A DNA stretch of 4,357 bases from a virus (IMGVR_UViG_2541047432_000021:1-4357); one strand, 5' to 3'. Positions 1 through 3,000 are shown, counted from the first letter of the stretch. Numbers are program-made.

Positions 1-3000
1 TCAAATGCGCCAAAGGTTCCCAGTTTCAGGTTGTTTGTCGCCACTTTCGCATTGTGGTACATCACATTCAGGTCTTTTGCATCTGTCTGGATGTAGAACG
101 CTGCCAGCAGGTTATTCCCCCCGTCTCCGGTCAGGGCAACGCCCTGTGGCAGTGAAGATACCGGCCAGTAAAACGCCATAACATACTGGTTCGCAGCCAG
201 CACTCCCGAAACCTTAAAGCGGCAGCGAATCTGCCCCCCTTTCTGTAACAGAGCCGCACCGTTGCCCGCGGCGTACTCCAGCACCCAGCTGCTTTTACCG
301 GCTTCCTTGGTCAGCTTCACTGCCTTACCTCCGGTTCCCTCCGCATCGCTGACCACTTCTGCCCTGCCGCCACTGGCTGACCATCCCTGTACTTTCAGGC
401 TTCCCTCTGACTCGCTGGCAAGGTAAGAGAGCAGTGTTGTGACGCCTGTGGCTTCTGCACCGGAAGGCGATGACGGGCGCACCTCTGATACTGTCGATGA
501 TGCCCCCGCGTTTAGCGCCACTCTTCCCGCATGGCGCAAAATCGCCGTTGCCAGACGGTCGGAAATAATCCCGCGGCGAGCCCATGAACTGAAATGGCTC
601 GCCCTGTCCTGTGACGTCCAGGTGGCTGAGCTGTCACGCCATTTCGAACCGTAATATCCGATACCCGGAATGTCCGGGTCTTCTTCCGGTTTGTTCGTCG
701 GCACATTCACCCCGTTCTCATCCGTCATGAACGGTACGAAATGGATATTCTTTTCCGTTTTGTTTTTATAGCTGCCATACACCGTCTGGTACGTGGATTC
801 GTTCTTCTGCTTCCAGAAATACGTCGTGTCCCCGCATATCCAGGGAACACCGCCAGCAGAGCCACCGACGCACTGGCCTGCCATATCCGCCAGGTCTGCA
901 CGGAATTTATCAACCAGCGCACCAAACTGTGCGGCGTGATTTGCCGGCGTACCGCCAAAATCAAATTCCCCCTGCATCCACACCACGGCAAACAGCACAT
1001 TTTTCGGATTCTTCTTCAGTGCTGCTTTTGTTCGACCGATAAGGTCCTTATACAGCGGCTTGTCCACACCCCAGCGGGTTGAATTCTCCGAGGCACCACT
1101 CGCGTCACTGTATGTGCCATCGGCTCCGGTGGTGAACGCTGAACCACCACGACAGCACGGAACCAGCAGAATGCCCGCATTCGCCGGTATAAACGGCAGC
1201 AGTTTTTTGGCGATATGCAGCCCCTGCCCCACGGTTCCGTACTGCCCCTTTGACAGGTCCGCTTTCGGATGGTTAAGACGGCTCATGTCCTGCACATCAT
1301 GCAGACAATGGTCCGCCGGAATGATGTCGTTATATTTGCATACTGCACCGCCCGGTGTCACCGTACTGCGACGCGCTAACTGTTTAATACGTGGATCAGG
1401 GCTGTCGAATGTATCCGGCAATGGCAGTCCCTCACCGTATGACATACCATTGGACTGACCAGCAAGCGCGATCACATAGTAATATTCTGGCGCAACAGAA
1501 GGCGCTGAGGTCGTCGGACGGTTGCCTGGCTCCTCTGGTGATGAGATGCTCCCCTCACTCACAACTGGCTGGATGAACTCCGCACCATAACCAGCTGTCG
1601 AAATCAGCGCACTACCATAAGGCTGCCACCCTTCCTTCAGTTTTTGAGTTATTCGTTTCGCAAGGTCTGACGGCGACGCCGCCCTGACAACATCATAGTG
1701 TTTAAATGCCATGAATCCTCCCGGCCGGGATAATATTGTGAGTAAAATAAGGAGCGGGCTGAAGTCCGGAAGTTACAGGACAATGGCAGAAGGAAGACTA
1801 CAGCCCGAAATACGAAAAAGGCCGCGCAGTTGCGCAGCCTTATGAATCCTGGTTAAAATGATTTCGATTATTAAAACGAGTATCTCATGCAATTGCCCGA
1901 ACCCACTCGGGCTTTTTTACATGTAAAAAGGCCCCTGCTATGAGAGGCCTTGGTATATGCCTAATCTCTGTATACTGCATGGTGCCGGGTGCCTCCCGGT
2001 GAGTTCGGCCTGGTACCACCGAACCCGTGTCGATAATGAATCACAAGCAAGGATTTTTCACCAGTCGCCCCTCCACACAGGGGGATTCACCATGCGAAAT
2101 TTTTTTAACAAATGCTCAGTCTGACAGGCAACTGTCAACTGACTGAATTGTGACACAGATTACACTTGTTACCCACATACCACGAATCAGGTTATGCCTC
2201 AGTCATTATTAAACTGCACTTCAGCAAATCCGGAGCCTGATTCACAGGTACTGGATTTGATTGTGACAGTCATTCCTGTCAACTGAGCACTTTGCAGTAA
2301 CGGTTGCAGATTCCAGCGACTGGTCCAGTATTCTTTCCCGTCAACCTTCACTGTAAATGTGTCATCCTCATTATACTTGGAAAACTCAATTTTACCTTTA
2401 GCACAATCCGCCGCCATTGCATTAACAGAAGCTAATGCAAATAAAACCGCCATAAACATCTTCTTCATGCTTAACTCCTTTATTTACCCGTTGTATATAA
2501 AAACTGTGACTTTCTGTTCAGAAACGCTGCAGCTGTATTACTTTCCCATAATGTATTGTTTATTTTTATAACAGGCCTGTCGCCAGTTATCTGACATTCT
2601 GGTTGACTCTCTTCATTCACGGCGCGAACAGAACGCGCCCCCTGATGATGGCAATTCAGTATAACGGCCACAGTCCCCAGTATCGCTGATATATTATTAA
2701 AGGATATTCTCCCCACTCTGACACCATCCTCTCCCCGATACTCCGGAAGCACATTGCTGATTCGCCCCCAGTTCAGAGTGAGGTCCACGTCTCCCGGCGT
2801 CATCGTATACACAGGAGCAGTTTCAGACAGTGCCTGACGAAATTCTCTCTGTATCTGCCTGAAGCGTAAGGCTTCTGCTGTGACAGTGACAAAACGCAGA
2901 ACTGCTCTGGATGCATCTCTGGTCATTGTATTACCACTGAACTCCATTAACGCCAGATATGATGAAACCAGTGAGTGACGACTGATTTGCATTCCGGAAC

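Follow-up and report, generated by a model that had tools for sequence, protein, structure and literature searches.

The 57-bp module at positions 1895-1951 very probably corresponds to the meeting 3′ ends of two convergent Hfq-dependent sRNA genes of an Stx2 phage, AsxR (EcOnc02) on the plus strand and STnc100/EcOnc27 on the minus strand. The two matches to Rfam families (RF02703 and RF02076) are both far over their gathering thresholds and both end inside the module. The arrangement is already published and implies no new biology: AsxR and EcOnc27 have been described as "convergent sRNAs encoded 3' of stx2B", with EcOnc27 listed on the strand opposite AsxR and the Hfq-crosslinked intervals of both RNAs ending 4 nt apart (Tree et al., 2014; PMC4104026). 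Either earlier publications or the present sequence analysis establish which RNAs these are, that they converge and that they depend on Hfq; we infer the exact 3′ ends, the Q-dependent read-through at the module and the promoter boxes.

The window, i.e., the whole stretch of 4,357 nucleotides that was analysed (IMGVR_UViG_2541047432_000021:1-4357), comes from the late region of an Stx2a phage, in which the minus strand carries the genes. These encode the Q antiterminator (3919-4341), three tRNAs (tRNA-Met, tRNA-Arg and tRNA-Arg, 3530-3779), followed downstream by a tR′-like terminator (3517-3498, minus strand), the toxin subunits stx2A (2480-3439) and stx2B (2199-2468), and the esterase nanS-p, whose ORF begins at 1713 and continues beyond the left edge of the window. 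The stx2B gene was recognized as an ORF with flanks identical to those of phage 933W and of Sakai Sp5, where it is annotated under this name. The 485-bp non-coding stretch between stx2B and nanS-p (1714-2198), in which the module lies, is 100% identical to phage 933W (NC_000924.1, 22703-23187) and to the prophage Sp5 of Escherichia coli O157:H7 Sakai. A weak match to STnc100, below threshold, was also obtained on the minus strand at 3487-3591 (18.9 bits, E = 0.56); it overlaps the tR′-like terminator at 3517-3498 and probably reflects merely the common shape of a terminator hairpin followed by a U-run.

A preliminary description of this DNA had proposed two terminators composed of a hairpin and a T-run, one per strand, and both are present at 1895-1951. 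The module reads GCCCGA, ACCCAC, TCGGGC, TTTTTT, ACATGT and AAAAA, followed by GGCCCCTGCTATGAGAGGCCTT. The plus-strand hairpin is exactly as first described: positions 1895-1900 pair with 1907-1912 to form a stem of 6 bp (GCCCGA/TCGGGC, five G-C pairs) that closes a 6-nt loop (ACCCAC) and is followed by T6 at 1913-1918. This G+C-rich hairpin lies directly before a U-run on the transcribed strand, as expected of an intrinsic terminator; it was called by the terminator scan, and it folds better than dinucleotide shuffles (-11.1 kcal/mol, z = -4.0). The same description considered a plus-strand terminator unexpected, no gene being evident upstream on that strand. The Rfam search of the window reveals precisely such a gene, the AsxR anti-sRNA gene (RF02703), which spans 53 nt on the plus strand (1865-1917) and scores 88.1 bits against a gathering threshold of 63 (E = 5e-14, model positions 1-53 of 53), with identity to the Rfam consensus at 53 of 53 positions. 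A search for ORFs would not reveal this 53-nt RNA gene. In RF02703 itself, the structure line closes with the GCCCGA/UCGGGC hairpin, after which comes a U-tail: AsxR ends in the plus-strand hairpin and T6, which serve as its own terminator. The 5′ end of AsxR is the targeting region, and its 3′ hairpin and U-tail (1895-1918), which combine an intrinsic terminator with an Hfq-binding 3′ module, make up the plus-strand half of the module.

AsxR, the name later given to EcOnc02, was discovered by Hfq crosslinking in strain O157:H7 Sakai, where its gene was placed 282 bp on the 3′ side of stx2AB, in antisense orientation; the RNA is listed there with 54 nt and as destabilized in a Δhfq strain (Table S2), the primary 5′ ends were mapped by RLM-RACE, and the identical AsxR sequence of Sp5 is expressed, bound by Hfq and antagonizes FnrS (Tree et al., 2014; PMC4104026). 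The distance in the window (2199-1917 = 282), the opposite strand and the Stx2 phage context all fit this published position. The AsxR sequence of the window (1865-1916) is the same as in Fig. S4 of that study, except that the machine-read text of the supplement has one A fewer in an A-run, and the Rfam consensus agrees with the window exactly. Nothing of substance differs, and the feature in the window is AsxR itself. AsxR belongs to the AsxR/AgvB/EcOnc03 family of anti-sRNAs (RF02703 and RF02702), and the copy in the window has the conserved 3′ hairpin GCCCGAACCCACUCGGGC, a U-tail after it and the published convergent partner. A 3′ region of about 42 nt that includes the terminator (AGTATCTCATGC..TTGCCCGAACC(C/T)ACTCGGGC-Tn) is common to AsxR, EcOnc03-type and AgvB-type copies, the terminator hairpin of AsxR being kept in both types of relatives, and the variation between the copies is found in the 5′ 14-18 nt.

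The AsxR gene starts 152 nt outside nanS-p and its transcription is directed away from it; antisense transcription across the nanS-p 5′ end, named as a criterion in the preliminary description, has no bearing on this terminator. The promoter scan of the window found no consensus promoter for either AsxR or STnc100. By eye, we noticed TAAAAT at 1854-1859 on the plus strand, separated by 5 nt from the start of the Rfam match at 1865, and TTGCGC at 1830-1835, at a spacing of 18 nt; judged from their sequence and position, the former is a probable -10 box of the AsxR promoter and the latter a weak possible -35 element. The same place holds a second intrinsic terminator of the minus strand (1818-1841), located between the AsxR promoter and the start of nanS-p, which is composed of AAGGCUGCGCAACUGCGCGGCCUU followed by UUU (10 bp, -18.8 kcal/mol). 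Seven diverged phages have its core TTGCGCA (1830-1836) without any change, and the GCGCAGTTGCGCAG around it with hardly any. The TTGCGC motif could double as terminator stem and -35 box, and this second terminator possibly stops read-through from the first one.

The minus-strand hairpin is the intrinsic terminator of the STnc100/EcOnc27 RNA (1925-1951). Positions 1951-1943 pair with 1936-1928 to form a stem of 9 bp (AAGGCCUCU/AGGGGCCUU, with five G-C pairs and one G.U pair) around a 6-nt loop (CAUAGC), and the U5 tract corresponds to 1929-1925, so placed that its first two U are inside the stem and UUU comes after it. The GGCC...GGCC hairpin and the U5 of the preliminary description are therefore both there, but the stem is longer than was described. 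Here too a G+C-rich hairpin directly precedes a U-run on the transcribed strand, and the predicted fold is more stable than that of dinucleotide shuffles (-13.5 kcal/mol, z = -3.6). A simple terminator scan of the window did not report this hairpin, probably because the stem extends into the T-run. The nine pairs are uninterrupted in the minus-strand RNA (1928-1951), whereas the plus strand has an internal mismatch, the U.G pair of the stem becoming C.A when read on that strand. Five close variants of the stem display one compensatory CG<->UA pair and one CG<->UG pair; with these five close STnc100 variants only, covariation is no better than in shuffles (137/500). Across subtypes, three different stems occupy the same site (GGCCUCU/AGGGGCC, GCCCCUC/GAGGGGC and GGCCCCA.../...UGGGGCC), each with a U-rich tail after it.

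The RNA that ends at this hairpin was recognized in the Rfam search as a member of the STnc100 family (RF02076; 1919-2124, minus strand), convergent with AsxR and with a score of 207.7 bits against a gathering threshold of 47 (E = 3e-49, model positions 1-206 of 206). The last hairpin of RF02076 is an AAGGCC.../...GGCCUU stem followed by a U-run. The 35-nt northern probe used for EcOnc27 by Tree et al. is identical to the plus strand of the window at 1946-1980 and detects the minus-strand RNA; EcOnc27 is therefore the minus-strand STnc100 homologue. On northern blots, EcOnc27 migrates at about 235 and 247 nt, and the 247-nt form is destabilized without Hfq (Tree et al., 2014; PMC4104026). A 2026 preprint reports that STnc100 is related to PasD, that a PasD copy adjoins a sialic acid esterase gene, and that AsxR and AgvB occur in the flanks of PasC genes (10.64898/2026.05.13.724894). 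The minus-strand RNA resembles the STnc100/EcOnc27/PasD family in its full-length model match, its terminal hairpin with a U-run and its site between a moron (stx2AB) and nanS-p. Two differences concern its ends. The Rfam model extends 6 nt beyond the U-run (ACAUGU, paired with an upstream GCAU), and at an actual intrinsic terminator the transcript would probably be released within the U-run, short of the end of the model. At the other end, the northern sizes exceed the 206 nt of the model, so that the true 5′ end is probably nearer to stx2B. A TGTAAT hexamer (5/6 match to a -10 box) was noticed by eye on the minus strand at 2164-2159, some 35 nt past the stop codon of stx2B; it has a poor -35 region and was not called by the promoter scan. 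A start near 2152 and an end at about 1922 would correspond to an RNA of about 231 nt.

The minus-strand terminator probably also ends the Q-independent stx2AB mRNA. According to Sung et al. (1990), as cited in PMC12078605, this transcript is about 1.6 kb long and starts 118 nt upstream of stx2A. By simple arithmetic, the distance from such a start to an end at 1925 is 1633 nt, which fits the size of the mRNA. The cited start ('118 bases upstream of slt-IIA') falls at 3557 on the minus strand, inside tRNA-Arg(tct) (3530-3606) and upstream of the tR′-like terminator, and may be a processed 5′ end instead of a start site. The work of Sung and colleagues from 1990 reportedly also placed a terminator about 274 bp downstream of slt-IIB; our literature search did not find this statement.

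These data raise the question of which transcript the minus-strand hairpin chiefly serves. It could be in the first place the terminator of the stx2AB operon, STnc100/EcOnc27 being a stable 3′-UTR fragment of the toxin mRNA and no independent gene, a possibility that we regard as real but rather doubtful and that would refine, more than exclude, the explanation of the module by two sRNA ends. The STnc100 match starts just 75 nt past the stx2B stop codon, a 1.6-kb stx2AB mRNA is compatible with an end at this hairpin, and the lack of a consensus promoter upstream of STnc100 in the promoter scan means that the RNA may be processed from the stx2AB 3′ UTR and not transcribed on its own. However, STnc100 is also present in phages without any toxin gene upstream, e.g., PhiR49_2 and phi367, where tRNAs are located directly upstream, which means that the RNA does not depend on stx; furthermore, the 5/6 -10 box TGTAAT would yield a transcript close in size to the ~235-nt northern band. 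The module could also be viewed as a true bidirectional terminator, in which each hairpin works both ways and whose chief function is to insulate nanS-p from the stx2 operon, and not to end sRNA genes. Bacteria have a general class of terminator pairs of convergent genes and of overlapping bidirectional terminators, for which the work of Ju, Li and Liu (Nat Microbiol, 2019) is said to provide an example, and the module resembles this class in that two convergent units have their ends a few nucleotides apart, in a common A/T-rich tract. Within the module, each of the hairpins lies between an A-run and a T-run, and the whole 76-nt region gives a good fold on either strand (z about -4.2 to -4.3). 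Instead of a single hairpin that lies between an A-tract and a U-tract and works for both strands, the window has two separate unidirectional hairpins: on the minus strand, the GCCCGA hairpin precedes AAUUGCAUG, which is no U-tract, and on the plus strand the second hairpin carries the C.A mismatch and precedes GGUAUAUGCC. A single-hairpin bidirectional terminator was rejected on the same basis, since of the two separate hairpins one lacks a U-tract when reversed and the other is left with a weak UUGGUAUAU. With a proper U-tract on only one strand per hairpin, the module consists of two convergent one-way terminators. Moreover, each hairpin is annotated on a single strand, as the 3′ end of a known RNA, and a strong insulator would oppose late-gene expression, nanS-p being reached by read-through from pR′. 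We consider it highly unlikely that the module works in both directions.

The preliminary description had further pointed to a perfect palindrome of 16 bp centred on ACATGT, and TTTTTACATGTAAAAA is found exactly there (1914-1929, both strands), where the two U-tracts meet across a 6-nt spacer. It had been suggested that this palindrome may be a protein-binding site, e.g., for a dimeric phage or host regulator, the hairpins then being secondary. It is the longest perfect palindrome in the window, and its exact pattern is expected 0.01 times by chance, which would favour such a role. However, when the window was shuffled 1000 times with its dinucleotides preserved, 6.6% of the shuffles contained some perfect 16-bp palindrome, so that a palindrome of this length is by itself just mildly unusual, and the T-run of one terminator, together with the A-run complementary to the U-run of the other, accounts for 10 of the 16 bases of TTTTTACATGTAAAAA. 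No second copy of TTTTTACATGTAAAAA exists in the window, even with two mismatches allowed. Conservation of the palindrome across related phages, proposed earlier as a check, was examined in IMG/VR with the pattern GGGC-T6-N(0-3)-CATGTAAAAAGGC, which retrieved 102 contigs. The centre is ACATGT in 19 of them, all of AsxR type, and GCATGT, with a one-base break of the dyad, in the other 83; the dyad symmetry therefore hangs on a single lineage-specific base (A1919) of the 6-nt spacer. The T-run varies from 6 to 8 in length among the same contigs, another STnc100 subtype has an asymmetric TTTTTTGTCCATAAGAAA and a TTTTTTGTCCATAAGAAAGCCCC without dyad, and Stx2c phages do not have the left half of the palindrome. 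A palindromic operator was rejected on account of this loss of symmetry among relatives, of the frequency by chance and of the lack of further copies, and a binding site at this place appears extremely improbable. The palindrome is a by-product of two abutting U-tracts and has no role of its own.

The convergent arrangement of two sRNA ends is widespread among related elements. STnc100 was found in 11 of the 11 diverged phage loci that we compared (138-195 bits), and in eight of them a plus-strand hairpin with a run of T6-9 abuts the STnc100 terminator. Many lambdoid phages have this back-to-back layout, and the partner RNA on the plus strand differs among them: AsxR is present in the window, and the cassettes found elsewhere are of EcOnc03/AgvB type, of a GCCCGCG...CGCGGGC type, of POCJ13 type and of PhiR49_2 type. 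The plus-strand hairpin and T-run are absent from the three remaining loci, two of them from Stx2c phages (L008:480-545 and L009:480-548) and the third being L011. Since these three keep the STnc100 terminator without a plus-strand partner, the back-to-back arrangement is common and not obligatory. Locus L011 contains two strong copies of STnc100 and a weak one. Five loci (L001:450-520, L002, L004, L005 and L006) have in the place of AsxR a plus-strand stretch of about 70 nt that ends with GCCCGCGTCTCCCAGCGCGGGC and T6-7; it gave no Rfam match at E <= 0.01 and is probably another convergent prophage sRNA, either unnamed or known under another name. In complete E. coli genomes, the 126-bp module was matched in 961 of 5426, with a median of three places per positive genome and roughly 2800 copies in all, and 292 records match it at 99% identity or more.

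Related contigs combine the same plus-strand cassette with different STnc100 3′ ends, and the reverse, with a breakpoint at the T-run. A mosaic boundary at this position (~1913-1918) was observed in L013, L051 and L082, which join a plus cassette of L001 type to an STnc100 3′ end of L003 type. These combinations suggest the junction between the terminators as the breakpoint of cassette exchange. We consider it improbable that the A/T-rich junction is a preferred recombination or mosaic boundary where anti-sRNA cassettes are exchanged against the resident STnc100 of lambdoid prophages. As a weaker variant of this reading, an overlap of the two 3′ ends by a few nucleotides (ACAUGU) may couple the termination or stability of AsxR and STnc100.

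With the module read as two convergent sRNA ends, AsxR would be transcribed on the plus strand from about 1865 and would stop at the GCCCGA/TCGGGC hairpin within T6, at about 1917. STnc100/EcOnc27 would be transcribed codirectionally with stx2AB, on the minus strand, and stx2AB transcripts made by RNA polymerase not modified by Q would share its path, both stopping at the AAGGCCUCU/AGGGGCCUU hairpin within U5, at about 1925-1921. The RNA sizes seen on northern blots are consistent with 3′ ends in the U-runs. Each hairpin with its U-tail would play a dual role, as a factor-independent terminator and as a stable poly-U 3′ end of the kind bound by the proximal face of Hfq. The abutting of the two genes would bring the T-run of one within 6 nt of the A-run that complements the other, and the ACATGT spacer would complete the 16-bp palindrome. 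In the lytic cycle, polymerase modified by Q and coming from pR′ would be expected, by analogy with the established biology of lambdoid late operons, to pass the minus-strand terminator towards nanS-p and the lysis genes. The plus-strand hairpin would halt AsxR transcription before it enters STnc100 and stx2B in antisense; the insulation of stx against antisense transcription, which the preliminary description put forward as a function of this terminator, would thus survive as a side effect of the AsxR terminator and not otherwise.

Most deposited phage records leave AsxR and STnc100 unannotated, and the locus is easily misread as empty intergenic DNA; among the 60 matches listed, STnc100 is named under the match in one (LC710660.1). 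The published coordinates of EcOnc02 and EcOnc27 (1268411-1268542 in Table S2) are displaced by about 135-139 nt relative to NC_002695.2 (L114), so that our match rests on sequences and not on coordinates, and mapping the two RNAs by published coordinate on the current Sakai RefSeq record would miss both. The chief value of the present analysis is a correction, the plus-strand terminator being the end of AsxR and not an orphan insulator. AsxR ties the Stx2 prophage to haem use by its host via FnrS and chuS, and the minus-strand terminator sets where the STnc100/EcOnc27 RNA and, probably, the Q-independent stx2 transcripts end.
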